DNA of 64,000 nt from Chloroflexota bacterium. Its GTDB lineage: Bacteria; Chloroflexota; Dormibacteria; Aeolococcales; Aeolococcaceae. The notes under the pieces were generated by a model. That model had not been told where the DNA came from, ran no database searches, and worked only from the letters and a program-made list of their open reading frames with translations. Shown in pieces: positions 1,103-26,091 of this stretch. Numbering within the stretch: position 1 is the stretch's first letter; each line of letters starts with the position of its first letter. Made by a program: the position numbers and the translations under genes. The stretch spans positions 64,003 through 128,002 of the forward strand of contig VBIQ01000008.1 of the NCBI GenBank assembly GCA_005880985.1. Reading direction: 5' to 3'.

Positions 1103-2719
1103 TTGCGCCGGCGGCGCCGCGCCGGCCGCCGGGTATCGTGGCCGCGCGTGAGCGCGATGCCAGGGTCGGCCGAGTCACCGCCGCGGCCCCCGCTGGGGCG
1201 GCGCGGGCGGCGGTGGTGGCTGCTGCTGGCGCTGATGGTGGCGCTGGTGCCGACGGTGGTGGTCGCCGGCCTGACCCTGGCCGGCCGAGCGCGCGGCGGC
1301 GGGGCCGAGGTCGCCCTGGTCGGTGCCGTCGCCCGCGGCGCCACCGCGACCAGCATCGACCGCGTTGAGCTCGGCGGTGCGGGCAACACGGTGACGCTGA
1401 CGGCGACGACGTCACCCCTGGCCCGCGCCCCCGACGAGGCCGATCTCGGCGTGCAGCATGTTCCCGCGGGACGCTACCAGGAGGTTCGCGTCGGTGTCGG
1501 TTCCACCACGCTGCGCGCCGCGCTCCGGCTGCAGCTCCATGACGGCGATCTGGTTCCGCTGCTGGTCGTCGTCGACGGTGGCAGGCTCAGCGCCTACACC
1601 GGCAGCGGCGCGGTGAGTCTTGGGTTACAGCTGGCGGGGGGCACCGTGGTCCACCCGCCCGACGCCATCACCCTCGCCGACCAGAACGGGGTCACCGCCT
1701 CGCTGCAGCAGCTGCTGCGTGGCCATCTCACCGTCCTCGTCTCCTTCAACACCCACTGCCACGACACCTGTCCGCTGTACACGGCTCTGCTCGCCGACCT
1801 CGAGCAGACCCTGCGGGCGCGCGGCTGGCAGGACCGGGTGCAGCTGTTGGAGGTGACCATGGACCCGGGCCGCGACAGTCCCGCGGTGCTGAGCGCCTAT
1901 GCCCGGCTGACCGGCGCCGACTGGAGGCTGCTCACCGGCGATCCCGCGGCGGTGCGGCTGTTCTGGAACGCTCTCGGGGTGCGCTATCAGGAATCGGCGT
2001 ATCCGCCGCAGGCCGCGCCGATCGACTGGTACTCGGGAACGCCGGAGGCCTATCACCTCGATCACGATTCGGCGGTCTTCGTCGTCGATGGCGACGGCAA
2101 CAGCGACTTCGCCCTGCTCGGCAATCCGCGCCTCTCCCACGGGCTCAGCCAGCCCCTCGACCACCTGCTGCAGCTCGGCGGCCACTCAGCGGCGCCGTAC
2201 GAGGCGCTGGCAACGTGGACGATCACCGACCTGCTGGACCGCGTCGACGTGGTGCTGCACGAGCCCGCCGAGCAGGCGCGAGCGACCGAGGCCACGGTGG
2301 CGCCGGGGACGGCAGTTCCCGACTTCACCCTCCGTGACCTCGATGGGCAGCAGGTCCGGCTGGCGCAGCTGGTCGGCGCGCCGGTGATCGTCAACTTCTG
2401 GGCCACCTGGTGCGGTCCCTGCCGCGCCGAGCTGCCGCGACTCGCCGCCGCGGTGCGCGAGCATCCCCGACTGCGGGTGCTGGCGGTGGACGAGGCGGAG
2501 GACGCGGCATCGGTGCGCAGCTATCTGCGTTCGCTCACCGGAACCTCGTCGCTCACCGTGCTGTTGGACGGCGACCGCGCCGTGGCGGAGCGATACGCGC
2601 TGGCGGGGATGCCGGTGAGCGTGATGGTCGATGCCGGCGGCACGGTGCGCGCGGTCCACGTGGGCGAGTTGAGCAGCGGCGATCTCCGCCAGGCGTTGAC
2701 GGCGATCGGAGCCGCCTGA
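1103..2719 (+). CDS. Membrane-anchored SCO1/SenC copper chaperone fused to a C-terminal TlpA/ResA-like thioredoxin (alternative start about 1157)
   Basis: N-terminal Arg-rich segment then hydrophobic anchor (WWLLLALMVALVPTVVVAGL); SCO1 CxxxC motif (VLVSFNTHCHDTCP) with downstream His; C-terminal VIVNFWATWCGPCRAELP thioredoxin-fold motif. Confidence 0.8.
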   Translation: MRRRRRAGRRVSWPRVSAMPGSAESPPRPPLGRRGRRWWLLLALMVALVPTVVVAGLTLAGRARGGGAEVALVGAVARGATATSIDRVELGGAGNTVTLTATTSPLARAPDEADLGVQHVPAGRYQEVRVGVGSTTLRAALRLQLHDGDLVPLLVVVDGGRLSAYTGSGAVSLGLQLAGGTVVHPPDAITLADQNGVTASLQQLLRGHLTVLVSFNTHCHDTCPLYTALLADLEQTLRARGWQDRVQLLEVTMDPGRDSPAVLSAYARLTGADWRLLTGDPAAVRLFWNALGVRYQESAYPPQAAPIDWYSGTPEAYHLDHDSAVFVVDGDGNSDFALLGNPRLSHGLSQPLDHLLQLGGHSAAPYEALATWTITDLLDRVDVVLHEPAEQARATEATVAPGTAVPDFTLRDLDGQQVRLAQLVGAPVIVNFWATWCGPCRAELPRLAAAVREHPRLRVLAVDEAEDAASVRSYLRSLTGTSSLTVLLDGDRAVAERYALAGMPVSVMVDAGGTVRAVHVGELSSGDLRQALTAIGAA

Positions 2720-2777: not shown

Positions 2778-5519
2778 ATGACCCAGCTCGACGAACGACC
2801 TCCTGCCACGCCGCTGATCTCGGGACCGAGCGGCCCGCTGGCGGTGGTGCCGCCGGCGCTCGAGGACATCGACCCCGAGGAGACCCGGGAGTGGCTGGAG
2901 TCTCTCGACGAGCTCATCGACCGCTACGGTCCCGAGCGCGCTCGCTTCATCGTGACCCGGCTGATGGAACGTGCCCACCACCGGCACGTCCACCTGCCGC
3001 TGCGACGCACCACCGACTACGTCAACACCATCGCTCCCAATGAGGAAGCGGCCTTCCCCGGTGACGAGGCGATGGAACGTCGCATCCGGCGCATCGTCCG
3101 CTGGAACGCGGCCGCCATGGTCACCCGCGCCAACGCCCGCTGGCCGGGCATCGGCGGTCACCTCTCGACCTACGCGTCGGCGGCGTCGCTCTACGAGGTC
3201 GGCTTCAACCACTTCTTCCGCGGCCGCGACAAGGGCTCGGGGGACCAGGTGTACTTCCAGGGTCACGCCACCCCCGGCATCTACGCGCGCGCCTTTCTCG
3301 AGGGGTTCTTCGACGAGGCCCGCCTCGATCACTTTCGCACCGAGGTGCAGGGTCCCGGGCTGTCGTCCTATCCGCATCCGCGGCTGATGCCTGACTTCTG
3401 GGAGTTTCCCACGGTGTCGATGGGCCTCGGCCCGCTCAACGCCATCTATCAGGCACGCTTCAACCGCTACCTGCGCGACCGCGACATCAAGGACACCGAC
3501 GCCTCTCGCGTCTGGTGCTTCGTCGGCGATGGCGAGATGGACGAGCCGGAATCGCTCGCCGGCCTGGCGATCGCGGCCCGCGAGAACCTGGACAACCTGA
3601 TCTTCGTGATCAACTGCAACCTGCAGCGGCTCGATGGCCCGGTGCGCGGCAACGGCAAGGTGATCCAGGAGCTCGAGGCGCTGTTCTTCGGGGCCGGCTG
3701 GAACGTCATCAAGGTGATCTGGGGCCGCGAGTGGGACGACCTGCTGGCACGTGACCGCGACGGAGTGCTGCTGGAGAAGATGAACCGCACCGTTGATGGT
3801 GAGTTCCAGAAGTACGCGACCGAGACAGGCGCGTATGTCCGTGAGCGCTTCTTCGGTCCCGATCCCCGTCTCCAGCAGTTGGTGGCCCATCTCTCCGACG
3901 ATGAGATCCGTCACCTGCGACGGGGCGGCCACGACTACCGCAAGCTCTACAGCGCCTACCGCAAGGCGGTGGAGTGGGAGCACAGCCCCACCGTCATCCT
4001 GGCCAAGACGGTCAAGGGCTGGGTGCTCGGTCCCGTCTTCGAAGCGCGCAACGCCACCCACCAGATCAAGAAGATGAGCGAGCTGGAGGTGAAGACCTTC
4101 CGCGACCGGCTCGAGCTTCCCATTCCCGACTCCGAGCTGAAGGACGGCCATGTGCCCTACTTCCACCCCGGGGAGAAGAGCGAGGAGGTCGCCTACCTGC
4201 GCGAGCGCCGGCAGGCGTTGGGTGGCTACATCCCGCGGCGGTCGACCAAGGCTCGCAAGGTGGAGATGCCCGCCGCCGCCGCCTTCGCCGACCTCTTCGG
4301 CGGCACCGGCGACAAGGGGCAGGCATCGACCACCGCCGCCTTCGTGCGACTGCTGCGCAATCTGCTTCGCGACAAGTCGGTGGGCAAGCGGGTGGTGCCG
4401 GTGATCCCGGATGAGGGACGCACCTTCGGCATGGACGCGCTCTTCCACGAGTTCAAGATCTACGCGTGGACGGGACAGCTCTACGAGCCCGTCGACGCCA
4501 AGATGCTGATCAGCTACCGCGAGGGCAAGGACGGCCAGATCCTCGAGGAGGGAATCACCGAGGCGGGCAGCATGGCGAGCTTCACCGCCGCCGGCACCTC
4601 GTACGCGACCCACGGCGAGCCGATGATCCCGTTCTTCACCTTCTACTCGATGTTCGGGTTCCAGCGGGTGGGCGACCTCATCTGGGCCTTCGGCGACGTG
4701 CGCGGACGCGGCTTCCTGCTCGGCGGCACCGCCGGGCGCACCACCCTGCACGGCGAGGGGCTGCAGCACGACGACGGCCACAGCCTGCTGGTGGCATCGT
4801 CGGTTCCAAACTGCCACGCGTACGATCCTGCTTTCGCCTATGAGGTGGCGGTGATCGTCCGCGACGGCATGCGGCGGATGCTCATCGACAAGCAGGACGT
4901 CTTCTACTACCTCGCGCTCTACAACGAGAACTACCCCATGCCGGCGATGCCCGCCGGGGTGGAGGAGGGGATCGTGCGCGGTCTCTATCCGCTGCACGCC
5001 GCCGAGGGAGTGAACCAGGACGCGCTGCGGGTGCAGCTGCTGGGGAGCGGCCCGATGGTGCGGGCGGCGCTGGAGGCGCAGTCGCTGCTCGCCGACCATC
5101 ACGGCGTGGCCGCCGACGTGTGGAGCGCGACCAGCTACCAGCAACTGCGCGCGGAGGCATTGCGAGTGGAGCGTTGGAACCGCCTCCACCCCACCAAGAC
5201 GCCGCGCGTGCCGCTGGTCACCGAGCAGCTGGCCACCTCGAAGGGGCCGATCATCGCCGTGAGCGACTGGATCAAGTCGGTGCCCGACCAGATCGCGCGC
5301 TGGGCGCCGCGGCGCTGGTGGACCTTGGGGACGGACGGATTCGGTCGCAGCGACACCCGCGAGGCGCTGCGCCGCCACTTCGAGGTCGACAGTGGCCACG
5401 TGGTGGTGGCGGCTCTGCATGCCCTCGCCGTCGAAGGCGCGGTGGAACCGGCGGCGGTGGCGGCCGCCATCAAGCGCTACGGCATCGACCCCGATGCCGT
5501 GGATCCCCGCGACGCGTAA
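2778..5519 (+). CDS. aceE: Pyruvate dehydrogenase E1 component (homodimeric type)
   Basis: 913-aa product with characteristic AceE N-terminus (EETREWLESLDELIDRYGPERARFI...), ThDP-binding region and full length. Confidence 0.95.
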   Translation: MTQLDERPPATPLISGPSGPLAVVPPALEDIDPEETREWLESLDELIDRYGPERARFIVTRLMERAHHRHVHLPLRRTTDYVNTIAPNEEAAFPGDEAMERRIRRIVRWNAAAMVTRANARWPGIGGHLSTYASAASLYEVGFNHFFRGRDKGSGDQVYFQGHATPGIYARAFLEGFFDEARLDHFRTEVQGPGLSSYPHPRLMPDFWEFPTVSMGLGPLNAIYQARFNRYLRDRDIKDTDASRVWCFVGDGEMDEPESLAGLAIAARENLDNLIFVINCNLQRLDGPVRGNGKVIQELEALFFGAGWNVIKVIWGREWDDLLARDRDGVLLEKMNRTVDGEFQKYATETGAYVRERFFGPDPRLQQLVAHLSDDEIRHLRRGGHDYRKLYSAYRKAVEWEHSPTVILAKTVKGWVLGPVFEARNATHQIKKMSELEVKTFRDRLELPIPDSELKDGHVPYFHPGEKSEEVAYLRERRQALGGYIPRRSTKARKVEMPAAAAFADLFGGTGDKGQASTTAAFVRLLRNLLRDKSVGKRVVPVIPDEGRTFGMDALFHEFKIYAWTGQLYEPVDAKMLISYREGKDGQILEEGITEAGSMASFTAAGTSYATHGEPMIPFFTFYSMFGFQRVGDLIWAFGDVRGRGFLLGGTAGRTTLHGEGLQHDDGHSLLVASSVPNCHAYDPAFAYEVAVIVRDGMRRMLIDKQDVFYYLALYNENYPMPAMPAGVEEGIVRGLYPLHAAEGVNQDALRVQLLGSGPMVRAALEAQSLLADHHGVAADVWSATSYQQLRAEALRVERWNRLHPTKTPRVPLVTEQLATSKGPIIAVSDWIKSVPDQIARWAPRRWWTLGTDGFGRSDTREALRRHFEVDSGHVVVAALHALAVEGAVEPAAVAAAIKRYGIDPDAVDPRDA

Positions 5520-5525
5520 CCACGA

Positions 5526-6884
5526 TTGCGTGTCGGTGCGAGGAGGGTGATCGAGCCGAGCGGAATCGAGGCGCCGGTCGACCTCGCCGCCGTGAGCGCC
5601 GAGCCGGCCGCGCAGGCTTCCCCAGCGCGGGCACTGCGCCGCTTTCCCCCTCCGGCGCTCCAGGTCCGCCCCTTTCGCTGGTACTGGCTCGCGCAGTGGC
5701 CGGTGCTGCTCGGCGTCTGGATGCAGATGGTCGCCCTCGGCTACCTGGTGTACCGCCAGACGCACAGCAGCACCGCGGTCGGTGTCGCCGCCGCCGCTCA
5801 GGGACTGCCCGCGGTGCTGCTCTCCCTGGCCGGCGGAGTCGCCGCCGACCGGGTGCCCCGCCGCCGGATCCTGCTGGTGACCCAGAGCGTGCTCGGCACC
5901 AGCGCGGCAACCCTCGCCGTGCTTGCGGCGACCGGGCACGCGACCTTCGCCGCCATCGTGGTGGTCGCCGCCGTCTTCGGCTCGGCCGACGCCGTCGACC
6001 TGCCCACCAGGCAGGCGCTGGTCGCCGACCTGGTCGACCGCGAGCTGATCGTCAGCGCCGTCGCCCTCGGCACGGTGGTGATGAGCGCCACCCGCATCGC
6101 CGGGCCTTCACTCGCCGGGGTGCTGATCGCCTGGACCGGTCCCGCCGCCTGCTTCGCCACCTTGGCCCTCGCCTACACGGTGCCGCTGGCGGTGCTCGCT
6201 CTGGTGATCCCCGACCTGCCACCGGCGCCGCGGCGGGCCGGCAGCACCGCCTTGGGCGAGATCGGCCGGGCGCTGAGCACGGCCGCGCGTGATCGGCTGG
6301 TGCGTCCGGTGCTGATCTGCGTCGCCGTCATCTCCTTCCTCGGGGTGTCGTACATGCCGTACCTGCCTGTCCTGGCAGCAACTCGGCTGCACGGCGGCTC
6401 GACCGTGCTCGGCATCCTCTACAGCACCGGTGGGATCGGCGGCCTGGTGGGGGGAGTGGCGCTGGCATCGCTGGGGCGGACGGCGTCGCGGCGGCCGCTG
6501 CTCCTCGGCGGGGCGGTGCTCTATGCCTGCGGGTTGTTCACCGTCAGCCACACCGGTGCGCTGGCGGTCGCCCTGCCCGCGCTGGTGCTGATCACCCTCG
6601 GCTTTCTGGCGATGAACACCTCGCTGACGACGTGGATCCAGGCCGACACCGATCCCGCGATGCGCGGCCGCCTGCTCGGCATCTACACCATGCTGCTGGC
6701 CGGACTGCAGCCGCTGGGCACGTTGACCTACGGGCTGCTCGCCCACGTGGTGCCGCTGTTCGACGCCATCGGCATCGGCGGGCTGATCGTCGGCGCCGTC
6801 GGGGTGCTCACCGCCGGCAGCCCGGCGATGCGTGGTGCCTCAGGGGTCGCGCCCGCGGTCGCCGCAGTCGACGATCCTGGCTGA
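5526..6884 (+). CDS. MFS transporter (EntS/YbdA-like exporter family), start uncertain
   Basis: 12 predicted TM segments, MFS signature region (FRWYWLAQWPVLLGVWMQMVALGYLVY...GGVAADRVPRRRIL). Confidence 0.8.
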   Translation: MRVGARRVIEPSGIEAPVDLAAVSAEPAAQASPARALRRFPPPALQVRPFRWYWLAQWPVLLGVWMQMVALGYLVYRQTHSSTAVGVAAAAQGLPAVLLSLAGGVAADRVPRRRILLVTQSVLGTSAATLAVLAATGHATFAAIVVVAAVFGSADAVDLPTRQALVADLVDRELIVSAVALGTVVMSATRIAGPSLAGVLIAWTGPAACFATLALAYTVPLAVLALVIPDLPPAPRRAGSTALGEIGRALSTAARDRLVRPVLICVAVISFLGVSYMPYLPVLAATRLHGGSTVLGILYSTGGIGGLVGGVALASLGRTASRRPLLLGGAVLYACGLFTVSHTGALAVALPALVLITLGFLAMNTSLTTWIQADTDPAMRGRLLGIYTMLLAGLQPLGTLTYGLLAHVVPLFDAIGIGGLIVGAVGVLTAGSPAMRGASGVAPAVAAVDDPG

Positions 6885-6924
6885 GAGGACGCTCGAGCTC
6901 GGCGGACTACACTGCCCGACCGCC

Positions 6925-7899
6925 ATGCCCCCGGGTCTCGGTCGACGCAACGCTGCCCTCGTCGCGTCGGCGGCGGCAGCGCTCGCCTCGATGCTGCTTC
7001 TCAGCGGCTGCGGTGGGCCGACCTCGAACGCGGCCGCCACCGCCTCCAGCCCGGTCGCCCGGGTCGGGAACGACGTGATCCCGGTGTCCCTCTTCGAGCT
7101 CCGGGTCGGCAAGACCCTGGCCGGCATCCGCCAGGGAGGAGGGCCGGCGCAGGGTTCACCCGGCTACGCGGCGATGGTGAAACAGGTGCGGGCCAGCGTC
7201 ATGCGCAGCCTGATCATCGACACCGTCATCGCTCACGAGGCGTCGTTTCGTGGACTGGGCGCGACCGATGCAGAGGTTGAGCGCGAGCTCGCCAACGACG
7301 CCCGCGCCGCGGGAGGGATGGACAAGCTCCGCCAGCAGCTCGCCGGCGACGGTGGGTCACTCGATCAGCGCCGTGACGAGCTGCGCGCGCACATCAACGA
7401 GCAGCGCCTCGAGGATCTCTTCGCCAGGCAGCGAGCCGACGAGATCGCGGCTCAGCTCAACCACGGTGCCGACTTCGCCACCCTGGCGACGCAGCTCTCC
7501 GACGACGTGGCGACGCGCAGCCGCGGCGGTGATCTCGGAGTGCTCGGCGCAGACCAGCTCCGCGCCGGCGACGCGGCCTTCTCCGTCGCGGTCACCGCCC
7601 TGTCCGCCGGTCACACCACCTCCGCGCCGGTTCGTGACGACGCCGGGTACGAGCTGATCCGGGTCGACACCGTCGCCGCCGCCGGAAGCAGCGTGCGCCA
7701 CATCCTGGTGGCGGCCCCGCGCGTCTATCGTGTCGCCGACCGGCCCGCATGGTTCAGCCAGTCGATCCTCGACGCCGTCGCCCAGGACTGCGCGCACAAG
7801 GCGATCACCGTCTACATCGACGCGGGTCAGCAGCCGTGCGTCGCCGGTGCGTCGGCAACCGCGTCGCCGGCAACGGGTACCGCCTCCCCGACCCGGTGA
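6925..7899 (+). CDS. Lipoprotein peptidyl-prolyl cis-trans isomerase (SurA-N-like plus PpiC/parvulin domain)
   Basis: Signal peptide with lipobox (LLLSGCGG); parvulin rotamase region (ADFATLATQLSDD...SRGGDLGVLG...); ORF track start 6832 trimmed to the Met before the signal peptide. Confidence 0.8.
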   Translation: MPPGLGRRNAALVASAAAALASMLLLSGCGGPTSNAAATASSPVARVGNDVIPVSLFELRVGKTLAGIRQGGGPAQGSPGYAAMVKQVRASVMRSLIIDTVIAHEASFRGLGATDAEVERELANDARAAGGMDKLRQQLAGDGGSLDQRRDELRAHINEQRLEDLFARQRADEIAAQLNHGADFATLATQLSDDVATRSRGGDLGVLGADQLRAGDAAFSVAVTALSAGHTTSAPVRDDAGYELIRVDTVAAAGSSVRHILVAAPRVYRVADRPAWFSQSILDAVAQDCAHKAITVYIDAGQQPCVAGASATASPATGTASPTR

Positions 7900-8498
7900 G
7901 GGCGTTCCTGGGCGTCGCCGTCACCGAGCCCGCGCTTGCCGCGGCGGTCTCGCTGCTGGCGGAGCTGCGGCGGGAGGTCGCCGACGTTCGCTGGGTCCGC
8001 GACGAGGGGCTCCACCTGACCATTCATTTCTTCGGCGCGCTTCCCGCCGATCGCCTCGATGCCGCGGTGGCCGCGGTGGCCCCCGCGGCGGCGGCCACGT
8101 CGCCCTTCCGGGTGCGCCTCGCCGGGCCGGGCAGCTTTCCCGGCGGGCGTCGCGAGCGGGTGCTCTGGATCGGGGCGTCCGAGGGGACGGCGGAGATGGC
8201 GGCCCTGGCCGGGCGCTGCACCGCGGGCCTCGCCGCCACCGGCTTCGCCGTCGAGGAGCGACCGTTCCGCGCCCACTGCACCCTGGGGCGGCCCCGCGGC
8301 ACGGCGCTGAGCGCCGCCGCACGCGGGGCCTGGGAGCAGGCTGCCGCCGCCTCACTGCCCGCGTTCACCGCCGACCGGCTGACCCTCTACGAGTCGGTCC
8401 CGGCCCAGGGCGGACCCCTCTACGTGCCTCGCGCCGAGGCGGGGTTCGGTCAGGCGGGCTCGGCGAGTGCCGGGTTCGGCGCCGGCACCGGGGCCTGA
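7896..8498 (+). CDS. thpR: RNA 2',3'-cyclic phosphodiesterase (2H phosphoesterase, LigT/ThpR)
   Basis: Two H-x-T/S-x motifs (HLTIHFFG and AHCTLGR) at the expected spacing; GTG start overlapping the upstream stop (GTGA). Confidence 0.8.
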   Translation: MRAFLGVAVTEPALAAAVSLLAELRREVADVRWVRDEGLHLTIHFFGALPADRLDAAVAAVAPAAAATSPFRVRLAGPGSFPGGRRERVLWIGASEGTAEMAALAGRCTAGLAATGFAVEERPFRAHCTLGRPRGTALSAAARGAWEQAAAASLPAFTADRLTLYESVPAQGGPLYVPRAEAGFGQAGSASAGFGAGTGA

Positions 8499-9394
8499 AG
8501 CGCGGCCACCGGCGCCGGTCGCGGCCGGCCAACCACCACCCCGGCGATCACCACCACGCCGCCCGCCAGTTGCAGCGGTCGCAGCGTCTCGCCCAGCGCC
8601 AGGAAGGCCACCACCGCCCCGAGGAAGGGCTGGAGGTAGCCGTAGACCGCCGCCCGGGTCGCGCCGAGGTGCTCGAGGCCGATGTAGAAGGCGAGGTTGC
8701 ACCAGCCGACCGCCATCACCGTGCTGAAGGCGAAGAAGCCGAGCAGCTGCCAGCTCAGCCGTGGCGGGGCCGTCGCCGCCTGGGCGGCGGCCACCGGGAG
8801 CAGGGGCAGGGCGCCGAGGATGGTGACCCAGCCGCTCAGGACCAGGGGCTGGTAGCGGGGGAGGAGGTCGACCAGGCGGGTGACGTAGAACGCCCAGACC
8901 AGCGGCGCTCCCAGGGCGATGAGGTCGCCGCCGATCTGGCCGTGCGCCCCGCCGCCCGCTCCGACCACCAGGACCAGGCCGGCCGCGCCCACCAGCATGC
9001 CGCTCCAGGCGCGGGCTCCAATCCGCTCGGAGCTCAGCAGCGCGCCGTAGGCGGCCACCACCAGGGGGGTGGCGCCGAGGATCAGGGAGACGTCGACGGC
9101 GGTGGTGTAGCGCAGCGAGACGGTGAAGGCGGTCTGGTTGGCGGCGATTCCGAAGAGCCCCGCCAGCGCCATCGCCCCCAGGTCGCGAAGCGGCGGCCGC
9201 CCCGACTCGGAACGGTGTAAACGCACCACGCTGAGCAGAAGCGTCCCACCGAGAAGGAACCGCGCCGCCGTGTACACGAGCGGGTCGACCGCGTCGAGGG
9301 CGACCTTGACCACGATGACGTTGACGCTCCAGACGCAGATCGCCGAGAGGACGAGGAGGTCGGAGGAGGACGCGCGGCGCGGGTGGCGACTCAC
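8450..9394 (-). CDS. EamA/DMT-family transporter
   Basis: 10 TM helices in two EamA-like halves; typical length about 300 aa. Confidence 0.8.
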   Translation of the reverse strand: MSRHPRRASSSDLLVLSAICVWSVNVIVVKVALDAVDPLVYTAARFLLGGTLLLSVVRLHRSESGRPPLRDLGAMALAGLFGIAANQTAFTVSLRYTTAVDVSLILGATPLVVAAYGALLSSERIGARAWSGMLVGAAGLVLVVGAGGGAHGQIGGDLIALGAPLVWAFYVTRLVDLLPRYQPLVLSGWVTILGALPLLPVAAAQAATAPPRLSWQLLGFFAFSTVMAVGWCNLAFYIGLEHLGATRAAVYGYLQPFLGAVVAFLALGETLRPLQLAGGVVVIAGVVVGRPRPAPVAALQAPVPAPNPALAEPA

Positions 9395-9563
9395 CCGGGC
9401 ACCCTACCGGAGGGCGGATGAACGGCGCCGGCGAAATGCAGCCCGGCCGGCACCGCAAGGGGATGAGCGCCACGTGTTAGGGGGGACAGCGACCGCGCGC
9501 CCCATGAAGAGAGGACAGGGGGGTGGGGGAGACGTTGCAGCGGCCACCGGCGTGGATGTGGCC

Positions 9564-10262
9564 TCAGTCGCCCCCCGTGGCGGCGGCGAGCACCGCCCTC
9601 GCCCCGGCGGCCGGGCCGCCAGGATGGCCGAAGACCGCGGTTCCCGAGACCAGGACGGTGGCACCGGCCTCGACGCAGGCGCGCGCGTTGGCGGTGTCGA
9701 CCCCGCCGTCGACCTCGACCTCGGTGGCCAGGCCCTGCCGCTCCACCTCCCGGCGAACCTGCTCCACCTTGTGGAGAGTGCGGGGGATCAGCTCCTGGCC
9801 GCCGAACCCGGGATCGATGGTCATCACCAGGGCCAGGTCGCAGGCCTCGAGGACGTCGTCCAGGTGATGGGCGGCTGTGCTGGGATTGATGGCGGCGCCG
9901 GCGCGGCAGTTCAGCTCGCGGATGGCGCCGAGGGTCCGATGCAGATGGGGGGAGACCTCGTAGTGGACGGTGATGCCGTCGGCGCCGGCTCGGGCGAAGG
10001 TCACGAGGTGGCGCTCGGGATCGACGATCATCAGGTGGAGCTCGAGGGGCAGCTCGGTCTCCCGGCGCAGGGAGCGCACGGTGTCGGTGCCGAAGGTGAA
10101 GTTGGGCACGAAGACGCCGTCCATCACGTCGACGTGAATCCGCTCGGCGCCGCCTCCCTCGAGCGCGCGCACGGCGTCTGCGAGGTGGCCGAAGTCGGCA
10201 GCCAGGACGCTGGGAGCGAGATGGATCGCCCCGGGGCACGGCGTCCAGGTGGAGCGCGGCAT
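9564..10262 (-). CDS. rpe: Ribulose-phosphate 3-epimerase
   Basis: Strong Rpe signature (APSVLAADF...HVDVMDGVFVPN...HLMIVDPE...MTIDPGFGGQ). Confidence 0.9.
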   Translation of the reverse strand: MPRSTWTPCPGAIHLAPSVLAADFGHLADAVRALEGGGAERIHVDVMDGVFVPNFTFGTDTVRSLRRETELPLELHLMIVDPERHLVTFARAGADGITVHYEVSPHLHRTLGAIRELNCRAGAAINPSTAAHHLDDVLEACDLALVMTIDPGFGGQELIPRTLHKVEQVRREVERQGLATEVEVDGGVDTANARACVEAGATVLVSGTAVFGHPGGPAAGARAVLAAATGGD

Positions 10263-10317
10263 CCGGTGATGATGCCAGCGCCTCCCATCGTGGTGGCGGT
10301 TTGCCAGACTGCGCGGC

Positions 10318-11250
10318 GTGCGGTGGGTGACCTTCCGGCGGGCGGATCACGTCGAGGACCGGGTCGGTCTGGTGGTCGGCGATCGCGTTCACGCGCTGCC
10401 TCCGCGCACCGCGCTGATCGACCTGCTCGGTGACGACGGCGAGCGCCTGTCACGCGCCGGCGAGCGCGCCGAGCATGAACCCGACCTGGTTCTGGTGCTG
10501 AGCGAGGTGCGACTGCGGCCGCCGATCACCAGACCGCCGTCGGTCCGCGACTTCTACGCCTTCGAGCAGCACGTGCGGACGGCTCGTCAGAGCCGCGGGT
10601 TGGAGATGGACCCTGACTGGTATGAGCTGCCGGTCTTCTACTTCACCAATCCGCATGCGATCTCGGCGGACGGTGATGACGTTGCCGTCCCGCCGGGTTG
10701 CGGCGAGCTCGACTACGAGCTGGAGGTCGCCGCGATCGTGGGACGCGGGGGCACCGACCTGGATCCTGATGAGGCAGAGCGTGCCATCGCCGGGTACTGC
10801 GTGATGAACGACTGGAGCGCGCGCGACCTGCAGCGACGCGAGATGAAGCTCAACCTGGGTCCCGCCAAGGGCAAGGACTTCGCTACCGGGCTGGGACCGT
10901 GGTTGGCGACGCCGGACGAGCTCGAGCCGGTGCGTTCCGGCGAGGCCTTCGATCTGGCGATGACCGCGTCGGTCAACGGCCGCGAGTACTCACGTGCGTC
11001 GCTGGCGGACGTGTACTGGAGTTTCGGTGAGATGATCGCCTATGCCTCACGAGGCACCCGCGTCGAGCCCGGGGATGTGATCGGGTCGGGGACGTGCGGC
11101 ACCGGCTGCATCCTCGAGCTGTCGCTGGTTCATGGCGGTGACGCGTACCCATGGCTGCAGCCCGGCGACCTGGTCGAGCTCTCGGTCGACCGCTTGGGAG
11201 CGCTGCGCAACCGGGTCGTGCCGGGGCCGCCGCTGCGCTCGCTGCGATGA
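10318..11250 (+). CDS. Fumarylacetoacetate hydrolase (FAH) family protein
   Basis: FAH-fold C-terminal domain signature (FYFTNPHAI...DYELEVAAIVG...GDVIGSGTCGTG...GDLVELSVDRLGAL). Confidence 0.85.
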   Translation: MRWVTFRRADHVEDRVGLVVGDRVHALPPRTALIDLLGDDGERLSRAGERAEHEPDLVLVLSEVRLRPPITRPPSVRDFYAFEQHVRTARQSRGLEMDPDWYELPVFYFTNPHAISADGDDVAVPPGCGELDYELEVAAIVGRGGTDLDPDEAERAIAGYCVMNDWSARDLQRREMKLNLGPAKGKDFATGLGPWLATPDELEPVRSGEAFDLAMTASVNGREYSRASLADVYWSFGEMIAYASRGTRVEPGDVIGSGTCGTGCILELSLVHGGDAYPWLQPGDLVELSVDRLGALRNRVVPGPPLRSLR

Positions 11251-11738
11251 CCGCCGGCGCGGCCGCGGATCTGCTGATGCGCCTCGACGCGGTGGAGGCT
11301 CGCCTGGCATCGCTCGCGGTCGAGTCGGTTGGCGGGCTGACCGACGCCGACCCCGCAACCGGTGAGCGCTGGGATGCGGGACAGGTGTGGGCGCATCTGG
11401 CGGAGTTTCCCGGCTACTGGCTGGGGCAGGCCCGTCTGGTGGTGGAGAGATGGCGGGACGAGCCGGTTCCCTTCGGCCGGGTCAAGACCGATCCCGAGCG
11501 GCTGGCCGCCATCGAGAACGAGCGGATGGCGGCTCCTTCGCTCCTGTTGGATCGCGTGCATGCGCAGCTCGACGCGCTGCGGAGCTGGCTGCGCGAACTG
11601 CCCGGGGACGCCTGGGACGCGGTGGGGTTGCACGTCAGGCTCGGTGAGATGGGGCTGGCCCGCACCCTGGACGAGTTCGTGGTCGGCCACCTCGAGGAGC
11701 ACGCCGCCCAGCTCGAAGGGATGGCGGGACGCGGCTGA
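11247..11738 (+). CDS. DinB_2 / mycothiol-dependent maleylpyruvate isomerase N-terminal-like domain protein
   Basis: About 160-aa helical protein with DinB/MDMPI-like features (WDAGQVWAHLAEF...VVGHLEEHAAQLE); ATG overlaps the FAH stop (ATGA). Confidence 0.55.
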   Translation: MTAGAAADLLMRLDAVEARLASLAVESVGGLTDADPATGERWDAGQVWAHLAEFPGYWLGQARLVVERWRDEPVPFGRVKTDPERLAAIENERMAAPSLLLDRVHAQLDALRSWLRELPGDAWDAVGLHVRLGEMGLARTLDEFVVGHLEEHAAQLEGMAGRG

Positions 11739-11749
11739 GCGGCACTCCA

Positions 11750-11926
11750 TCACGACTCCAGGCGTTCGCGGAGCTCGGCGCTCAGGCAGGCGGGACACGC
11801 GGGAGCGCCGCCACCGCGGATCGAGCACTCCGCGCTCAGATGACCGTCGTACAGCCGGGCGGGGCTCGGGCGGGTCTCGGTGTGGTGGGGGCGCACCCGG
11901 GCGGGATTGCCGGCCCCCTCGGGCAT
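11750..11926 (-). CDS. Small hypothetical Cys-containing protein (58 aa) downstream of pgl
   Basis: High GC3 codon bias; C-x10-C-x2-C (ECSIRGGGAPACPAC); no recognisable family. Confidence 0.25.
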   Translation of the reverse strand: MPEGAGNPARVRPHHTETRPSPARLYDGHLSAECSIRGGGAPACPACLSAELRERLES

Positions 11927-11958
11927 GAACGGCTGGCGGGCGGGGTCGGGGCGAGGAC

Positions 11959-12690
11959 TCACGCCGCGATGCTGCGTGCCGCCGCCTCGTCGAGGAACCA
12001 GATCAGCTCGCCCTCGCGCGGCGCCACGCCGGCCGCGGGCACGCTGCCGTCCAGCACTCCCCGCAGCGCGTCCGCCTTGTTGGCGCCAGCCACCAGGAAG
12101 GCCACCGCCGCGGCGGCGTTGATCGTCGCGTACGTCAGGGTGATGCGGTCGTACGGCGCGTAGTCGGCACGACCCCGGGTGGCCCAGGTGTCCTGGACCC
12201 GGAGCGCGGGCTGTCCGGGAAAGAGCGAGGCGGTGTGTCCGTTCTCGCCCAGACCGAGCAGGATGCAGTCGAGCCGCGGCGCCCCGCACGGGCCTCGCGG
12301 CAGGGTGCGGACCAGCAGCTCTGCGTAGCGGGCGGCGGCGGCGGCGGGATCGGGCGCCTCGCCCTCCATCCGGTAGATGTGGTCGCGATCGACGGGAACC
12401 TGGCGGAGCAGGGTCTCGTCGATCAGGCGGTAATTGCTGGCGGGATCATCGGGCGGGCAGGCCCGCTCATCGGCGAAGTAGATGCGCCAGCGCTGCCAGT
12501 CGGCGCGAGTGCGCCATGGCTCTCCAGCCAGCAGCTGATACAGGGGGCGCGGGGTGCTCCCGCCGGAGACGGCGAGGGTGAAGCGGCCGTGATCGCCGAT
12601 GGCGGCAGCGGCCCGGTCCATCAACCACGCCGCCACCGTTTCCGCCAGGTTGGCCGCGATCCGCACCTGGCCGGGAAGCGACTCAGGCAT
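11959..12690 (-). CDS. pgl: 6-phosphogluconolactonase
   Basis: Pgl/DevB signature (FTLAVSGGSTP...ILLGLGENGHTASLFPG); overlaps the opcA stop. Confidence 0.85.
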   Translation of the reverse strand: MPESLPGQVRIAANLAETVAAWLMDRAAAAIGDHGRFTLAVSGGSTPRPLYQLLAGEPWRTRADWQRWRIYFADERACPPDDPASNYRLIDETLLRQVPVDRDHIYRMEGEAPDPAAAAARYAELLVRTLPRGPCGAPRLDCILLGLGENGHTASLFPGQPALRVQDTWATRGRADYAPYDRITLTYATINAAAAVAFLVAGANKADALRGVLDGSVPAAGVAPREGELIWFLDEAAARSIAA

Positions 12691-13744
12691 TGTCGGCCAG
12701 CGCTGCAGCCCGCAGCGCGGCGAGGTGGATGGGATCGACATCGGTCTCCTGCAGGATGCTGCCGACCAGTTCGGCGGTGCTTGGATCTGTCGCGGGAAGG
12801 CTGCGGACCAGGCGGGGACCGCGTTCGACCTCCAGGGAACAGGTGATGACCCCCTGCTCGCGGGCCAGCCTCACCCGCGCCGCGCCTCCTCCCGCGTGTC
12901 CTTCCAGCTCGACGGCGGCGAGCCGCGGCGCCGCGTCCGAGCCGCTGATGGTGGCCATCTCCACTTTTGGCGAGAACGACTCCCCGGCGGTCGGGGGGAC
13001 CCGGGATGCGATCCAGCCGGCGATCAGCCACCCGTCGCTGCAGGGACGGTCCCCGGCGGTGGTCACGGCGAGACTTTGCAGTCCCCGCAGGTAGCGCGGC
13101 ATGTCCGGTCCGTCGAAGGCCTGCGCCAGCAACTCGCGCCAGCGCCGCCCGCGGACCCAGGCGAGGTCGGCCAGCCGCAGCCGTGGCTGAACGGATGCGT
13201 GGGTGGCAAGCAGCATCAGCGTTCTCGCGCTGTCGGCGTAGCCGTTGCTGTCGAGGATGACCCGCTCGCAGGCGCCGGCGACGTCGTCGCTCAGCGCCTG
13301 GTCGAGCGGCGGCGCTCCCACCACCCAGAGGTAGACGGGGACGTCGGGCAGCAGCAGCGGCGCGACCACGCTGAGCAGGTGGCGGGCCGGTTCGCCGGCG
13401 ACGCGCAGCTGAACCTGTTCGGCGCAGACCTGGCCGCCGCCGCGGACCGAGCATTGGAGGGAGAGGTCGGCGGTGATCGACGCCTCCGCCGCCGCGGGGT
13501 CGGCGAGGATGATGATGATCCGCGCCGGACTGGTCTCGGCGATGCGCGACGCCACCACCTCGGCGGTCTCCGTGCCCGCCTCGTCGGTACAGGCAGCGAC
13601 CAGGGTCAGACAGCTGAGGCGCACCGGGGTGCTGCCCTCCTCGCCCGCCCTGAGCGTCTCCGCATGCAGCGCGATGAGCTCGTGGGCGACCGCGTTCAGC
13701 CCGCTGGCGTGGGCGGTACGGATCAGGGTCGGCGACTGGCTCAC
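12683..13744 (-). CDS. opcA: Glucose-6-phosphate dehydrogenase assembly protein OpcA
   Basis: About 350-aa product immediately downstream of zwf with OpcA-like sequence; conserved actinobacterial zwf-opcA-pgl order. Confidence 0.8.
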   Translation of the reverse strand: MSQSPTLIRTAHASGLNAVAHELIALHAETLRAGEEGSTPVRLSCLTLVAACTDEAGTETAEVVASRIAETSPARIIIILADPAAAEASITADLSLQCSVRGGGQVCAEQVQLRVAGEPARHLLSVVAPLLLPDVPVYLWVVGAPPLDQALSDDVAGACERVILDSNGYADSARTLMLLATHASVQPRLRLADLAWVRGRRWRELLAQAFDGPDMPRYLRGLQSLAVTTAGDRPCSDGWLIAGWIASRVPPTAGESFSPKVEMATISGSDAAPRLAAVELEGHAGGGAARVRLAREQGVITCSLEVERGPRLVRSLPATDPSTAELVGSILQETDVDPIHLAALRAAALADNA

Positions 13745-13754
13745 CGGCGGAGGA

Positions 13755-15356
13755 CTACAGGCGGCGCCAGGCGCGGCCGTCGCCGGCGATGAAGTCGTGC
13801 GCCTCGCGCGGTCCCCAGGTTCCCGCTTCGTAGTTGGGGAACTGAGCCGGATCGGGAGGGTGGGTGCGCCAGGCGTCGAGGATGGCGGTGCAGACCCGCC
13901 AGGCCTCCTCCACCTCGTCTTCGCGGGCGAACAGGGTGGCGTCGCCGAGCATGCAGTCGAGCAGCAACCGCTCGTACGCGTCCGGCGAGGCGCCGAGGAA
14001 GGAGCTGCCGTAGAGGAAGTCCATCGAGACGCTGCGGATGCGCATCGTCTGGCCGGGCACCTTGGCGGCGAAGCGGAGGGTGATGCCCTCGTCGGGCTGG
14101 ATGCGGAGGATCAGCCAGTTGGGTTCGATCGTCCCGCCGACCACGGACGAGCGCGGGCTGTCGAACGGGCTGTGGGGGACGCGCCGGAACTGGACGGCGA
14201 TCTCGGTGGCGCGCCGCGGGAGCCGTTTGCCGGTGCGCAGGTAGAAGGGCGTCGTCGCCCATCGCCAGTTGTCGACATCGAGCTTGAGGGCGACGAAGGT
14301 CTCGCGCAGCGACTGCTCGGGAACACCCTCCTCCTCGCGGTATCCGGGGACGCGCTCGCCGTCGATCCAGCCGGGGCCGTACTCGCCTCGGACGGTGCGC
14401 GCGAGCGCGTCCTCCGGGGCAATGGGACGGATGGCGCGCAGCAGCTTGACCTTCTCGTCGCGCACCGTCTCGGCGGCGAAGTCGGCCGGCGCCTCCATAC
14501 CGACGAGCGCGACCAGCTGCATGATGTGGTTCTGCACGATGTCGCGCAGCGCCCCCGACTCCTCGTAGTAGTTGCCGCGCCCTTCGACACCGAGCGACTC
14601 CGCCACCGTGATCTGGACGTGATCGATGTACTGGCGGTTCCAGATCGGCTCGAAGATGCCGTTGGCGAAGCGGAACACCATCAGGTTCTGGACTGTCTCC
14701 TTGCCCAGGTAGTGGTCGATGCGGTAGATCTGGTCCTCGTTGAAGCTGCGGTGGAGCTCCTCGGTGAGGGTGCGAGCGGTGGCGAGGTCGCGGCCGAACG
14801 GCTTCTCGACCACCAGGTGGACATAGGCGCCGGGGCTGTCCGCGGCACGGTTGAGGCCCTCCTCGCCGAGCCGGGTGGCGACCCGGCCGATGCCGCTCGG
14901 GGGGATGCTGAGATAGAAGAGTCGGTTGCCGCCGGTGCCGCGGTCGCGATCGCACTCGGCCAGCACCTGTTTCAGCGCCTCGAAACCGCCCTCGGCTTGG
15001 AAGTCGACGACGGCGTAGCGCAGGCCCTGGGCGAAGCCGCTCCAGACATCGTCGCGGAGCTCGACGCGGCCGTACTTCTCCACCCCCTCCCGCATCGCGG
15101 CGCGGAACGCGTCGTCCGACATCTCGGTGCGGCCGGCGCCGACCACACTGGTGCTCGAGGGGAGCAGGCCGTCGGAGGCCAGGGCGTAGAGAGCGGGGAC
15201 GAGCTTGCGCTGAGTGAGGTCGCCGCTGGCGCCGAAGATCACGACCGCACAGGGCAGCGGGGTGCGCTGCTGCCGAACCCCCTCGCGAAGCGGGTTGACC
15301 TCCTGCTCTGGTGGCGCCTGCGTCTGCACCGGTGCCGACGCTCCGTCGGGAGCCAC
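13755..15356 (-). CDS. zwf: Glucose-6-phosphate 1-dehydrogenase
   Basis: Rossmann GASGDLT motif, RIDHYLGKE active-site motif, full-length 533 aa. Confidence 0.95.
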   Translation of the reverse strand: MAPDGASAPVQTQAPPEQEVNPLREGVRQQRTPLPCAVVIFGASGDLTQRKLVPALYALASDGLLPSSTSVVGAGRTEMSDDAFRAAMREGVEKYGRVELRDDVWSGFAQGLRYAVVDFQAEGGFEALKQVLAECDRDRGTGGNRLFYLSIPPSGIGRVATRLGEEGLNRAADSPGAYVHLVVEKPFGRDLATARTLTEELHRSFNEDQIYRIDHYLGKETVQNLMVFRFANGIFEPIWNRQYIDHVQITVAESLGVEGRGNYYEESGALRDIVQNHIMQLVALVGMEAPADFAAETVRDEKVKLLRAIRPIAPEDALARTVRGEYGPGWIDGERVPGYREEEGVPEQSLRETFVALKLDVDNWRWATTPFYLRTGKRLPRRATEIAVQFRRVPHSPFDSPRSSVVGGTIEPNWLILRIQPDEGITLRFAAKVPGQTMRIRSVSMDFLYGSSFLGASPDAYERLLLDCMLGDATLFAREDEVEEAWRVCTAILDAWRTHPPDPAQFPNYEAGTWGPREAHDFIAGDGRAWRRL

Positions 15357-15357
15357 C

Positions 15358-16266
15358 CTACGGGGCCTCTGCCTTCACCGCGTGGCCGCCGAACTCGTTG
15401 CGCAGCGCCGCGATCACCTTGTTGGCGAAGCTGTCATCGCGGCGCGAGTCGAACCTGGTGAAGAGACTCAGGGCGATGGTCGGGGCGGGGATGCGCAGGT
15501 CGATCGCCTCCTGCACCGTCCAGCGGCCCTCGCCGGAGTCGTCGACCCAGCCGCGCAGCCTGTCCAATCCCGGATCGCGCTGAAAGGCCGCCTCGGCGAG
15601 CTCCAGCAGCCAGGAGCGCACCACGCTTCCCTGGTTCCAGAGGTGGGCGATGCCGTGCAGGTCGAGCTCGAACTCCGACTTGGCGTGCAGGATGTCGAAG
15701 CCTTCCGCATACGCCTGGAGCATGGCGTACTCGATCCCGTTATGGACCATCTTGACGAAATGTCCCGCGCCGGTGGGACCGACATGGAGGAAGCCGTCGG
15801 GAGGCGCCAGGGTGTCGAACACCGGCCGCAGGTGGTCGATGGCGGTCTGGTCGCCGCCGGCCATGATGCAATAGCCGACCTCCAGGCCCCAGATGCCTCC
15901 GCTGGTGCCGGCGTCGACCAGGTGCACGCCCCTGGCCCGGCAGCGTTCGGCGTCGGCCATGGTGTCGCGGTAGTTGCTGTTGCCGCCGTCGACGATGATG
16001 TCACCGCCGCCGAGCAGCTCCAGCAGCCGGCTGATGGTGTCCTCGGTGACCTTGCCGGCGGGGACCATCAGCCACACGGCGCGGGGCCGGTCGAGCCTCC
16101 CGACCAGCTCGTCGAGGGAGGAGACGGCAACCGCGCCGAACTGCTCGACCGCGTTCCGGGCCTGCGGGTCAGGGTCGAAGGCGACCACCGCGGTGTCGCT
16201 GTCGCGGCGCAACCGGTGGACCATGTTGCCGCCCATCCGGCCCAGCCCGACGAATCCCAGCTGCAT
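15358..16266 (-). CDS. gnd: 6-phosphogluconate dehydrogenase, decarboxylating, short (about 300 aa) form
   Basis: N-terminal GxGxMG Rossmann motif (LGFVGLGRMGGNM), 6PGDH central motifs; TGATG overlap with the upstream tal-pgi stop. Confidence 0.9.
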   Translation of the reverse strand: MQLGFVGLGRMGGNMVHRLRRDSDTAVVAFDPDPQARNAVEQFGAVAVSSLDELVGRLDRPRAVWLMVPAGKVTEDTISRLLELLGGGDIIVDGGNSNYRDTMADAERCRARGVHLVDAGTSGGIWGLEVGYCIMAGGDQTAIDHLRPVFDTLAPPDGFLHVGPTGAGHFVKMVHNGIEYAMLQAYAEGFDILHAKSEFELDLHGIAHLWNQGSVVRSWLLELAEAAFQRDPGLDRLRGWVDDSGEGRWTVQEAIDLRIPAPTIALSLFTRFDSRRDDSFANKVIAALRNEFGGHAVKAEAP

Positions 16267-19106: not shown

Positions 19107-19122
19107 CGATTGCGTTCCTCCC

Positions 19123-21018: not shown

Positions 21019-21125
21019 CTCCCTCGATCACGGTGCACGGGAACGCCCGCCGGTCTCCATCATGGCCCCTGGGATCGGATGACTGCAGGGGCCCAACTCC
21101 GGCGCGGAGTCGCGTGCGCCGACGC

Positions 21126-21824
21126 TCAACCCGGGCCGAGCAGGGCGGTGACGGCGGCGCGGGCGGCGGCGGCGCGCGCCGGCGCGGCGGCGAGCTCGTC
21201 CTGCCGCCGCCGGCGCCGTTCGTCCGGCCCGCCGGGGTCGATCGCCCGCCGCCACCACGGTACCGCGGCCTCCCCGAGACCCACGCGCCGCGCCAGCCGG
21301 GTCACCGCGACGGCGTCGGCGACGCCGCCGCAGACCAGCACCTGCCCGACCACCGCTGCCGCGGCCTGGCGCCAGGCATCCGCCTCGCGGTCGACAGCGG
21401 CGATGCCGGCGCGGCCCAGGGAGATGAGCACCTGCTCGCTGCGACCAACGTCGCGCACGGTGGCGATCCGGCCCACCGCGGTGTTGGGGCCGCCGCTCGC
21501 ACGGGCGGCCAGCTCGGCGTCGCCGTCGAGGATGACCGCCGCCTCGCCGGCCATCGGAGTGGCGATCGCGGTCCCCGCGACGGCGACGCGGCGGGCCCGC
21601 GGCATCCAGAACCCGGCCGCCTGCCGCGCCGCGGCGATCCCGCTCCCGCTGACCACCAGGGCGATCGTTCCCGCGGGAGCGGCACAGGTCCACGCGGCGC
21701 GCGCGCGACCGGCGGGCACGCTGCGCAGCTGCAACCGCCGGCGGCGGAGCTCGCCCCGGACGGGGACGGCGTCCGCCGACAGCGCGCAGGCGACGATCCC
21801 GACCAGCCAGGGCTGCTGTGCCAT
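21126..21824 (-). CDS. Hypothetical protein (Ala/Gly-rich, soluble), start chosen at MAQQPWL
   Basis: Only frame with consistent GC3 bias in this interval; the overlapping Arg-rich frames look like GC artefacts; no confident family assignment. Confidence 0.35.
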   Translation of the reverse strand: MAQQPWLVGIVACALSADAVPVRGELRRRRLQLRSVPAGRARAAWTCAAPAGTIALVVSGSGIAAARQAAGFWMPRARRVAVAGTAIATPMAGEAAVILDGDAELAARASGGPNTAVGRIATVRDVGRSEQVLISLGRAGIAAVDREADAWRQAAAAVVGQVLVCGGVADAVAVTRLARRVGLGEAAVPWWRRAIDPGGPDERRRRRQDELAAAPARAAAARAAVTALLGPG

Positions 21825-21948
21825 TGCGGAGGCTCCTCGGTGCTTCGATATGGGCGTGAGGAGTCTGCCCGGAGACCGGCGGCGGGCGTGGGTGACCCCC
21901 GCCGGACGGGGTGTACACTCGGGTTCCCGAGACGGTTTTGCGCGCCGC

Positions 21949-22025
21949 GCGCCCATAGCTCAGCCCGGATAGAGCAGCGGACTACGGATCCGCGTGCGGG
22001 GGTTCAAATCCTCCTGGGCGCGCCA
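21949..22025 (+). tRNA. tRNA-Arg (anticodon ACG)
   Basis: Cloverleaf parsed by hand: acceptor GCGCCCA/TGGGCGC, D arm GCTC-AGCCCGGATA-GAGC, anticodon stem GCGGA/TCCGC with loop CUACGGA (U33, ACG at 34-36), 4-nt variable loop, T arm GGGGG-TTCAAAT-CCTCC, discriminator G then genomically encoded CCA; loop identical to known bacterial tRNA-Arg(ACG). Confidence 0.88.
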
Positions 22026-22063
22026 CCCTGTTTCGAGTTCGATTCGCAGCGTGGAGCTAGCCG

Positions 22064-26090: not shown

Positions 26091-26091
26091 A

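Follow-up and report, generated by a model that had tools for sequence, protein, structure and literature searches.

A membrane-anchored Dormibacteria protein that joins a SCO1/SenC copper-chaperone domain to a TlpA/ResA-class thioredoxin domain

We examined a stretch of 64,000 nucleotides (nt) from a Chloroflexota bacterium (class Dormibacteria; assembly GCA_005880985.1, contig VBIQ01000008.1, positions 64,003 to 128,002; "the window" hereafter means this whole stretch), near the start of which one open reading frame (ORF) encodes a membrane-anchored fusion of a Sco-type copper chaperone with a thiol-disulfide reductase. The parts of this gene are given below in nt positions of the window. 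Residue numbers follow the frame of 538 amino acids (aa), and model and alignment numbering begins at M19 (offset 18).

1103 to 2719, + strand: fusion ORF, 538 aa from TTG 1103, uninterrupted, stop codon at 2717–2719
1211 to 1285, + strand: predicted N-in transmembrane anchor RWWLLLALMVALVPTVVVAGLTLAG (aa 37–61; helix 19–43 in the AlphaFold2 (AF2) model)
1301 to 1639, + strand: N-terminal beta-sandwich, eight strands and one helix, ~115 aa
1670 to 2176, + strand: SCO1/SenC copper-chaperone domain, assigned by Pfam, ScoI alignment, and Foldseek
1757 to 1771, + strand: CHDTC (aa 219–223), CxxxC copper motif
2063 to 2065, + strand: candidate His ligand H321 in LDHDS (aa 319–323), aligned with the His of the ScoI MDHT motif
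2177 to 2311, + strand: helical linker, a W...DLLDRxD block followed by a low-confidence hinge
2312 to 2716, + strand: thioredoxin domain of the TlpA/ResA/DsbE class, assigned by Pfam, Foldseek, and an invariant motif
2408 to 2422, + strand: WCGPC (aa 436–440), active site with CGPC

The G+C content at third codon positions of the fusion ORF (0.89) is in line with that of the remaining genes of the window, where overall G+C content is ~70%. The true start is probably ATG 1157 (520 aa) rather than TTG 1103, since it is the start used by an identical public protein (P0001) and agrees with the ortholog alignment; a protein identical to P0001 is also on record from other assemblies. The order of the parts is kept in 30 full-length orthologs from independent assemblies (42%–50% identity). 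The continuous ORF, these colinear orthologs, and about 66 homologs of the same order bear out the proposal of the initial annotation that the gene encodes a single polypeptide, not one split by a stop or frameshift, and the CHDTC, LDHDS, and WCGPC motifs lie exactly where it had first placed them. An AF2 model built on the 30 orthologs has a mean predicted local distance difference test score (pLDDT) of 85 and a predicted template modelling score (pTM) of 0.61. It lays out the chain (model numbering) as a transmembrane helix (19–43), eight strands (49–148), a helix (150–161), a Sco-like alpha/beta domain (~172–340), short helices (345–380), and a thioredoxin fold (391–516). An Arg-rich segment (GRRGRR) precedes the transmembrane helix at aa 37–61, in agreement with the earlier description of the protein as membrane-anchored; the topology is a prediction, with an N-in orientation expected from the positive-inside rule.

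The N-terminal beta-rich domain noted earlier is present as an eight-strand sandwich, modelled at a pLDDT of 90–94, and when modelled alone reached a pLDDT of 94 and a pTM of 0.87. Domain searches on this region upheld a beta-sandwich fold and yielded no match to a known family. The sole Pfam match, found in 1 of 16 members scanned, was DUF4382 (PF14321; E = 0.22; 12.2 bits versus a cutoff of 25), and Foldseek detected no significant fold relative in the PDB (best match E = 3.5e-3, template modelling score (TM-score) 0.54). The weak fold matches were to Bacteroides 'cell adhesion' proteins, transthyretin-like hydrolases, and the PepT2 extracellular domain, and were generic to transthyretin-like/immunoglobulin-like folds. 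No Cys, His, or Met is conserved across this domain in the ortholog alignment. We rejected its assignment to DUF4382, as the score was below threshold, and to PCuAC, CopC, or YcnI, for which there was neither a profile nor a fold match and whose metal ligands were not conserved. Domain architectures were counted among 290 fetched proteins with four domain hidden Markov models built from the family alignment; in these, the N-terminal domain was seen solely N-terminal to Sco, and occurred without Sco only in fragments. A homolog search with the N-domain alignment was swamped by low-complexity words, returning one 140-aa fragment and missing known members. We conclude that this beta-sandwich is specific to the family and is no copper-binding module.

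The assignment of the middle region to SCO1 proved to be genuine. Pfam SCO1-SenC (PF02630) matched residues 190–333 well above its cutoff (E = 3e-21; 76.2 bits versus 22.8), covering positions 5–133 of the 134-position profile, and the CxxxC and His are in register with the copper ligands of ScoI. PDB sequence matches to this part were Bradyrhizobium japonicum ScoI (Blr1131; 4wbj, 4wbr, and 4txo chain D) and T. thermophilus Sco1 (2k6v), and Foldseek aligned the modelled domain with ScoI at TM-scores of 0.72–0.76. Residues of the copper motif (C201, H202, C205, and P206, model numbering) and the distal His (H303) are invariant in the 30 orthologs, and the Sco domain carries a complete predicted Cys-x3-Cys/His copper site. 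The likeness to ScoI of B. japonicum/diazoefficiens extends to the membrane-tethered, thioredoxin-fold chaperone as a whole: THCPDVCP in ScoI is aligned with THCHDTCP, and H321 of the fusion YHLDHDSAVFVVDGDG (LDHD) with the His of ScoI YTMDHTALIYLMDRDG (MDHT). Unlike ScoI, the Sco domain of the fusion is the middle one of three, has an insertion of ~15 aa in its His loop, and is followed by a conserved helix (W..DLLDRxD).

The linker between the two catalytic domains has invariant columns in the 30 orthologs (W354, D358-L-L-D-R, D364, P370, E372, R375, and E378), with DLLDRVD at nt 2228–2248, and its hinge drops to a pLDDT of 58 at model residues 371–380. Downstream of it, Pfam matches at residues 401–532 were to AhpC-TSA (E = 2e-23; 83 bits), Redoxin (E = 4e-20; 72.6 bits), and Thioredoxin, and PDB sequence matches were 3kcm, ResA, CcmG, DsbF, and TlpA. 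Invariant residues of this domain are W415-A-T-W418-C419-x-x-C422, G484, and P486 (model numbering), and the candidate cis-Pro lies in GMPVS. NCBIfam models ranked ResA first (NF002854; 84.7 bits versus a cutoff of 170), then TlpA (NF047696; 58.6 versus 230), then DsbE/CcmG, all three below their curated cutoffs. The earlier label 'TlpA-type' therefore stands for the TlpA/ResA/DsbE class, and does not stand for TlpA proper, given the score of 58.6 bits against 230 and ResA as the nearest relative. As in Bradyrhizobium TlpA (1jfu, 4txo, 4txv), a reducing thioredoxin domain with W-C-x-P-C is anchored and extracytoplasmic; unlike TlpA, which is a protein on its own, the fusion has CGPC instead of CVPC, and its domain shares one chain with the presumed substrate. 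ResA carries the motif CEPC. Bacillus subtilis ResA (1st9, 1su9) resembles the thioredoxin domain of the fusion as its nearest solved structure and top NCBIfam match; it differs in reducing apocytochrome c, in its CEPC motif, and in being encoded with resBC, none of which was seen for the fusion.

Fusions of this kind are recurrent. A word-indexed search returned ~30 full-length homologs of the three-domain protein (491–523 aa, 45%–52% identity), and 616 proteins at E ≤ 1e-30 came from a profile search that ran exhaustively over 1.84 billion representatives. The order N-domain–Sco–(linker)–thioredoxin was found in 66 of the 290 fetched proteins, Sco plus thioredoxin without the N-domain in 78, and the reverse order, thioredoxin–Sco, in two; the 146 Sco–thioredoxin fusions in several architectures answer the question raised earlier of how widespread the arrangement is. 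The metagenomic classes without the N-domain (a minimal form of ~350–430 aa, a Sco–thioredoxin–thioredoxin form of ~530–575 aa, and a form of ~765–835 aa with an extra N-terminal region) share the order of Sco before thioredoxin and usually keep both active sites. They differ from the three-domain form in having neither the beta-sandwich nor the conserved linker, and their Sco motif is usually CTTVC. Across all 146 fusions, the Sco CxxxC is kept in 135 and the C-terminal CxxC in 140, many of the exceptions being fragments. In the Sco–thioredoxin–thioredoxin architectures (530–835 aa; P0033–P0080), none of the 30 proteins scored retains the CxxC of the middle thioredoxin-like domain, which has probably degenerated into a structural or relay domain (e.g., in the protein at 10001–12310 of locus L087).

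The named three-domain members belong to Candidatus Dormibacteraeota/Dormibacteria, with a single exception labelled Candidatus Angelobacter, an Acidobacteriota genus; the three-domain fusion is found in many soil bacteria, and a minimal fusion of 384 aa is from Chloroflexota. Public names already reflect one or both halves: NCBI calls the fusions 'redoxin domain-containing protein' or 'SCO family protein', and in IMG many are named 'cytochrome oxidase Cu insertion factor (SCO1/SenC/PrrC family)/thiol-disulfide isomerase/thioredoxin'. A scan of a genome collection with the family-derived pattern [LV][NT]FWATWC, which is generic to TlpA/ResA domains, gave at least 80 loci; among the matches listed, all were standalone redoxins with no fusion, and a Sco gene lay within 10 kb of just 1 of these 80. 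We found no description of a Sco–TlpA or Sco–thioredoxin fusion in the literature searched, to which the genome-wide Sco survey of Banci et al. (2007) did not belong. Both catalytic families and their partnership are already known, and what is new is the three-domain form with its unmatched beta-sandwich and conserved linker.

Linkage to cox and copper genes at the loci of relatives is the principal functional evidence for the fusion. The informative loci are as follows.

L004 (P0010, 49% identical): COX1 fragment, DUF1404, heme O synthase, ArsR-type regulator, fusion, 62-aa ORF, plastocyanin-like cupredoxin
L089 and L090 (P0143, Candidatus Dormibacteria, two independent assemblies): fusion divergent, at ~140 bp, from 77-aa ORF–COX3–COX2–COX1–CtaA–CtaB–CopC/CopD
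L093 (P0134): COX2–COX1–COX3–CtaB–Caa3_CtaG–Sco (211 aa)–fusion, all in one direction with the fusion last
L002 (P0030), L003 (P0029), and L088 (P0129): CopC–CopD(–YtkA/FixH) fusion and a DUF4399-like gene, 2.6 kb off
L087 (769-aa class): DUF1775 (YcnI-like), CopC–CopD, then fusion, in one operon

Three family members (P0143, P0134, and P0010) thus lie in or next to aa3 oxidase operons, with COX1/2/3, CtaA, CtaB, and CtaG among their genes. P0143 is 36% identical to the window protein over 429 aligned residues and keeps CHESC, DHT, and FCGPC. The COX2 beside it (225 aa, CuA motif CAEFCGINHAEM) and that beside P0134 (259 aa, CuA motif CAELCGLYHAYM) have no cytochrome c domain, and a caa3-type oxidase was rejected on this ground as the reason for a ResA-like domain. 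In L004, the COX1 gene is cut by the contig end (CtaD_CoxA, 87 bits) and has VPAHFHTYM, the heme O synthase scores 325.6 bits versus a cutoff of 246, and the ATG of the fusion overlaps the stop of the preceding gene. The proposed link of the fusion to oxidase biogenesis is accordingly supported by relatives in or next to cox operons, and is not visible in the window. At three of the loci, we also observed a gene for a predicted lipoprotein of 293–296 aa that overlaps the start codon of the fusion (L088 9114–10004, + strand; L002 and L003 ~9112–9995) and has no Pfam match. By eye, its N-terminal part is YtkA/FixH-like and it has a cysteine motif (FGEPGFCMTAVCGP); it is possibly a further thiol or copper protein of the fusion operon.

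Gene order connects the window to one of these loci. The order SurA/PpiC–LigT ... Pgl–OpcA–G6PD is common to positions 6832–21018 of the window and 5811–14942 of L004, and this downstream synteny supports P0010 as an ortholog of the window fusion. In the window, a pyruvate dehydrogenase E1 gene and a major facilitator superfamily (MFS) transporter gene lie between the fusion and SurA, with no cox or ctaB gene upstream of the fusion, which suggests that the upstream cox genes were lost or moved in this genome.

In Bradyrhizobium, membrane-anchored TlpA (CVPC) holds the paired cysteines in ScoI and in CoxB reduced, ScoI.Cu2+ then binds apo-CoxB, and PcuC finishes CuA (PMC6669012, PMC6696091, PMC7558416). 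Because TlpA and ScoI are separate proteins there, with TlpA reducing ScoI and CoxB, the gene described here corresponds to the Rosetta-stone fusion suggested by the initial annotation, joining a chaperone and a reductase. The fusion shows functional linkage; reduction of its own Sco domain in cis, the hand-over of copper, and an electron donor are inferred. We favour, at a probability of roughly 60%, the reading that the protein is a membrane-tethered extracytoplasmic assembly factor for CuA of an aa3-type cytochrome oxidase, with chaperone and reductase in one chain. On the oxidising face of the membrane, the tethered thioredoxin domain would maintain the dithiol state of the Sco cysteines and, probably, of the CuA cysteine pair in subunit II. 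Copper could then be bound by the Sco domain, which would engage subunit II like Bradyrhizobium ScoI. A membrane carrier of the CcdA/DsbD type would be needed to recharge the thioredoxin domain; no such carrier (PF02683) was detected in the window or at the sampled loci of relatives. Because candidate metal ligands are absent from it, the beta-sandwich would most likely be a spacer or docking module. A self-contained CuA-assembly module appears to be the most economical reading, in which the conserved helix and flexible hinge join both sites on one anchor.

Several observations weigh against this assignment. Neither the window nor the upstream 10 kb of the source contig contains a cox, ctaA/B, PCuAC, copCD, or ccdA gene, so the role of the window gene itself rests on homology; the check for cox genes proposed earlier was thus negative locally and positive at the loci of relatives. 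Four further loci (L085, L086, L091, and L092) have nothing clearly related to copper or oxidases. In L093, a standalone canonical Sco gene (7213–7848, + strand; CTTEC, GHS) lies directly upstream of the fusion (8001–9611); with a free Sco encoded before it, the Sco domain of the fusion need not be the main chaperone. Finally, the thioredoxin domain falls under the curated cutoffs of both TlpA and ResA, and the nearest structure by Foldseek is that of ResA, a reductase of cytochrome c maturation (1st9; TM-score 0.92, root-mean-square deviation 1.2 Å, 29% identity), with TM-scores of 0.66–0.68 to the TlpA structures.

The operon arrangement of L093 suggests that the fusion works alongside a canonical Sco, and we entertain tentatively, as an unlikely elaboration, a two-step relay that includes this. 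The CGPC domain would hand electrons to the Sco-fold domain, which would deliver them to the cysteines of subunit II, with the beta-sandwich docking the protein on subunit II or on a CopCD importer. Such a protein might take the place of the TlpA missing from Dormibacteria, and possibly that of PCuAC, and would parallel the mitochondrial SCO2–SCO1 pair.

Two readings that separate the halves differently appear somewhat less probable still, and neither is clearly ahead of the other. In one, the two functions are independent and merely share a tether, with the C-terminal domain acting as a ResA/CcmG-type reductase on apocytochrome c (CxxCH) or on subunit II only. The lead of ResA over TlpA, both among NCBIfam models and in structural superposition, favours this, although the active-site Glu of ResA (CEPC) is replaced by Gly in the fusion (CGPC). 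B. subtilis also offers a precedent, as it lacks TlpA, and ResA is its only extracytoplasmic thiol oxidoreductase needed for oxidase assembly (PMC9145763). However, both COX2 proteins encoded next to family members have the CuA motif and no cytochrome c domain, and neither resB/resC nor ccm genes occur at any sampled locus of the relatives. In the other, equally doubtful, the Sco-fold domain is itself an oxidoreductase or peroxidase recharged by the thioredoxin domain, feeding the CuA cysteines or detoxifying oxidants of the envelope. Here, the standalone Sco upstream in L093 could fill the chaperone role, a reductase role in the absence of TlpA has been proposed for Sco itself or for a second Sco homolog (PMC6669012, PMC9145763), and Sco proteins have been implicated in oxidative stress defence (PMC7558416; PMC6307045). 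Nevertheless, the distal His and CxxxCP are invariant in the 30 orthologs, and a purely redox role needs no His; the loci are moreover rich in copper genes (CopCD, YcnI, and cupredoxin).

The same copper genes could instead point to general extracytoplasmic copper trafficking for cuproproteins other than subunit II: to blue copper proteins, to CuB, or in exchange with CopCD importers. CopC–CopD fusions are repeatedly near family members and the 769-aa class, a plastocyanin-like cupredoxin adjoins the fusion in L004, and Sco occurs in bacteria without an aa3 oxidase and aids CuB assembly of cbb3 oxidases (PMC7558416). We regard this as quite improbable, given that the tightest linkages are to complete aa3-type cox operons with a CuA-bearing COX2. 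An artefact, in which assembly or frameshift error joined two neighbouring genes, can be dismissed: nothing supports it, the identical protein recurs in other assemblies, the 30 colinear orthologs and ~66 three-domain homologs from many samples exclude it, and the linker between the domains has invariant residues.

The preferred reading, a single-chain CuA assembly factor, would bear on a process that has been worked out narrowly. TlpA-dependent reduction of Sco and subunit II is known in detail from just one alpha-proteobacterium; many bacteria have no TlpA homolog, and Sco or a second Sco may then be the reductant (PMC9145763, PMC6669012). The reductant of the CuA cysteines is unclear in many bacteria without a recognisable TlpA (PMC9145763, PMC6669012). 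On comparative grounds, the fusion appears to support the interpretation of reductase and chaperone as partners, and adds linkage to cox operons. Its recurrence in cox operons of an uncultured phylum may serve as independent comparative evidence that this partnership is general, leaving the known picture of CuA assembly unchanged. With both activities on a single chain, the fusion would also be a compact system for biochemical work, for instance on copper loading or on disulfide exchange within the molecule, and its new beta-sandwich domain may have a docking role.

The remaining genes of the window that were noted around the fusion and elsewhere are as follows.

11 to 1072: flavin adenine dinucleotide (FAD) oxidoreductase, neighbour of the fusion
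2778 to 5519: pyruvate dehydrogenase E1, neighbour of the fusion, followed by the MFS transporter
46910 to 47470, + strand: standalone redoxin lipoprotein (Pfam Redoxin, E = 1.3e-8), lipobox ISAC, WCTAC at nt 47123

Further genes are SurA/PpiC-like, LigT-like, a pentose-phosphate cluster (Pgl, OpcA, G6PD, 6PGD, Tal/Pgi, and Tkt), and many unrelated ones. The second, standalone redoxin lipoprotein reported earlier at 46910–47470 was confirmed by its lipobox, WCTAC motif, and Redoxin match; it sits 44 kb from the fusion, amid acyl-CoA dehydrogenase and GGDEF/EAL genes. A region of ~1 kb (21018–22064) that separates transketolase from a methyltransferase holds only overlapping Arg/Pro/Ala-rich ORFs and no convincing gene. 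At 24964–27645 (+ strand) there are two TadE-like genes and a TadG-like (Flp pilus) gene; L089 and L090 have similar Tad genes within a few kb of the fusion.

A formate-dehydrogenase-like molybdopterin oxidoreductase at 36920–40201 (− strand), listed as two ORFs, is one gene with an in-frame TGA at 39584–39586. The TGA occupies the canonical selenocysteine position (context ...VENQARI*HSSTVPG...), making the product a probable selenoprotein, and a 4Fe-4S subunit (36063–36923) and FdhD (28799–29653) are encoded nearby. Toward the end of the window, a 1923-aa hybrid histidine kinase (56549–62320, + strand) combines about ten HAMP repeats with GAF, HisKA/HATPase, and three receiver domains, and is followed by CheR (62230–63174) and a REC-PAS protein.

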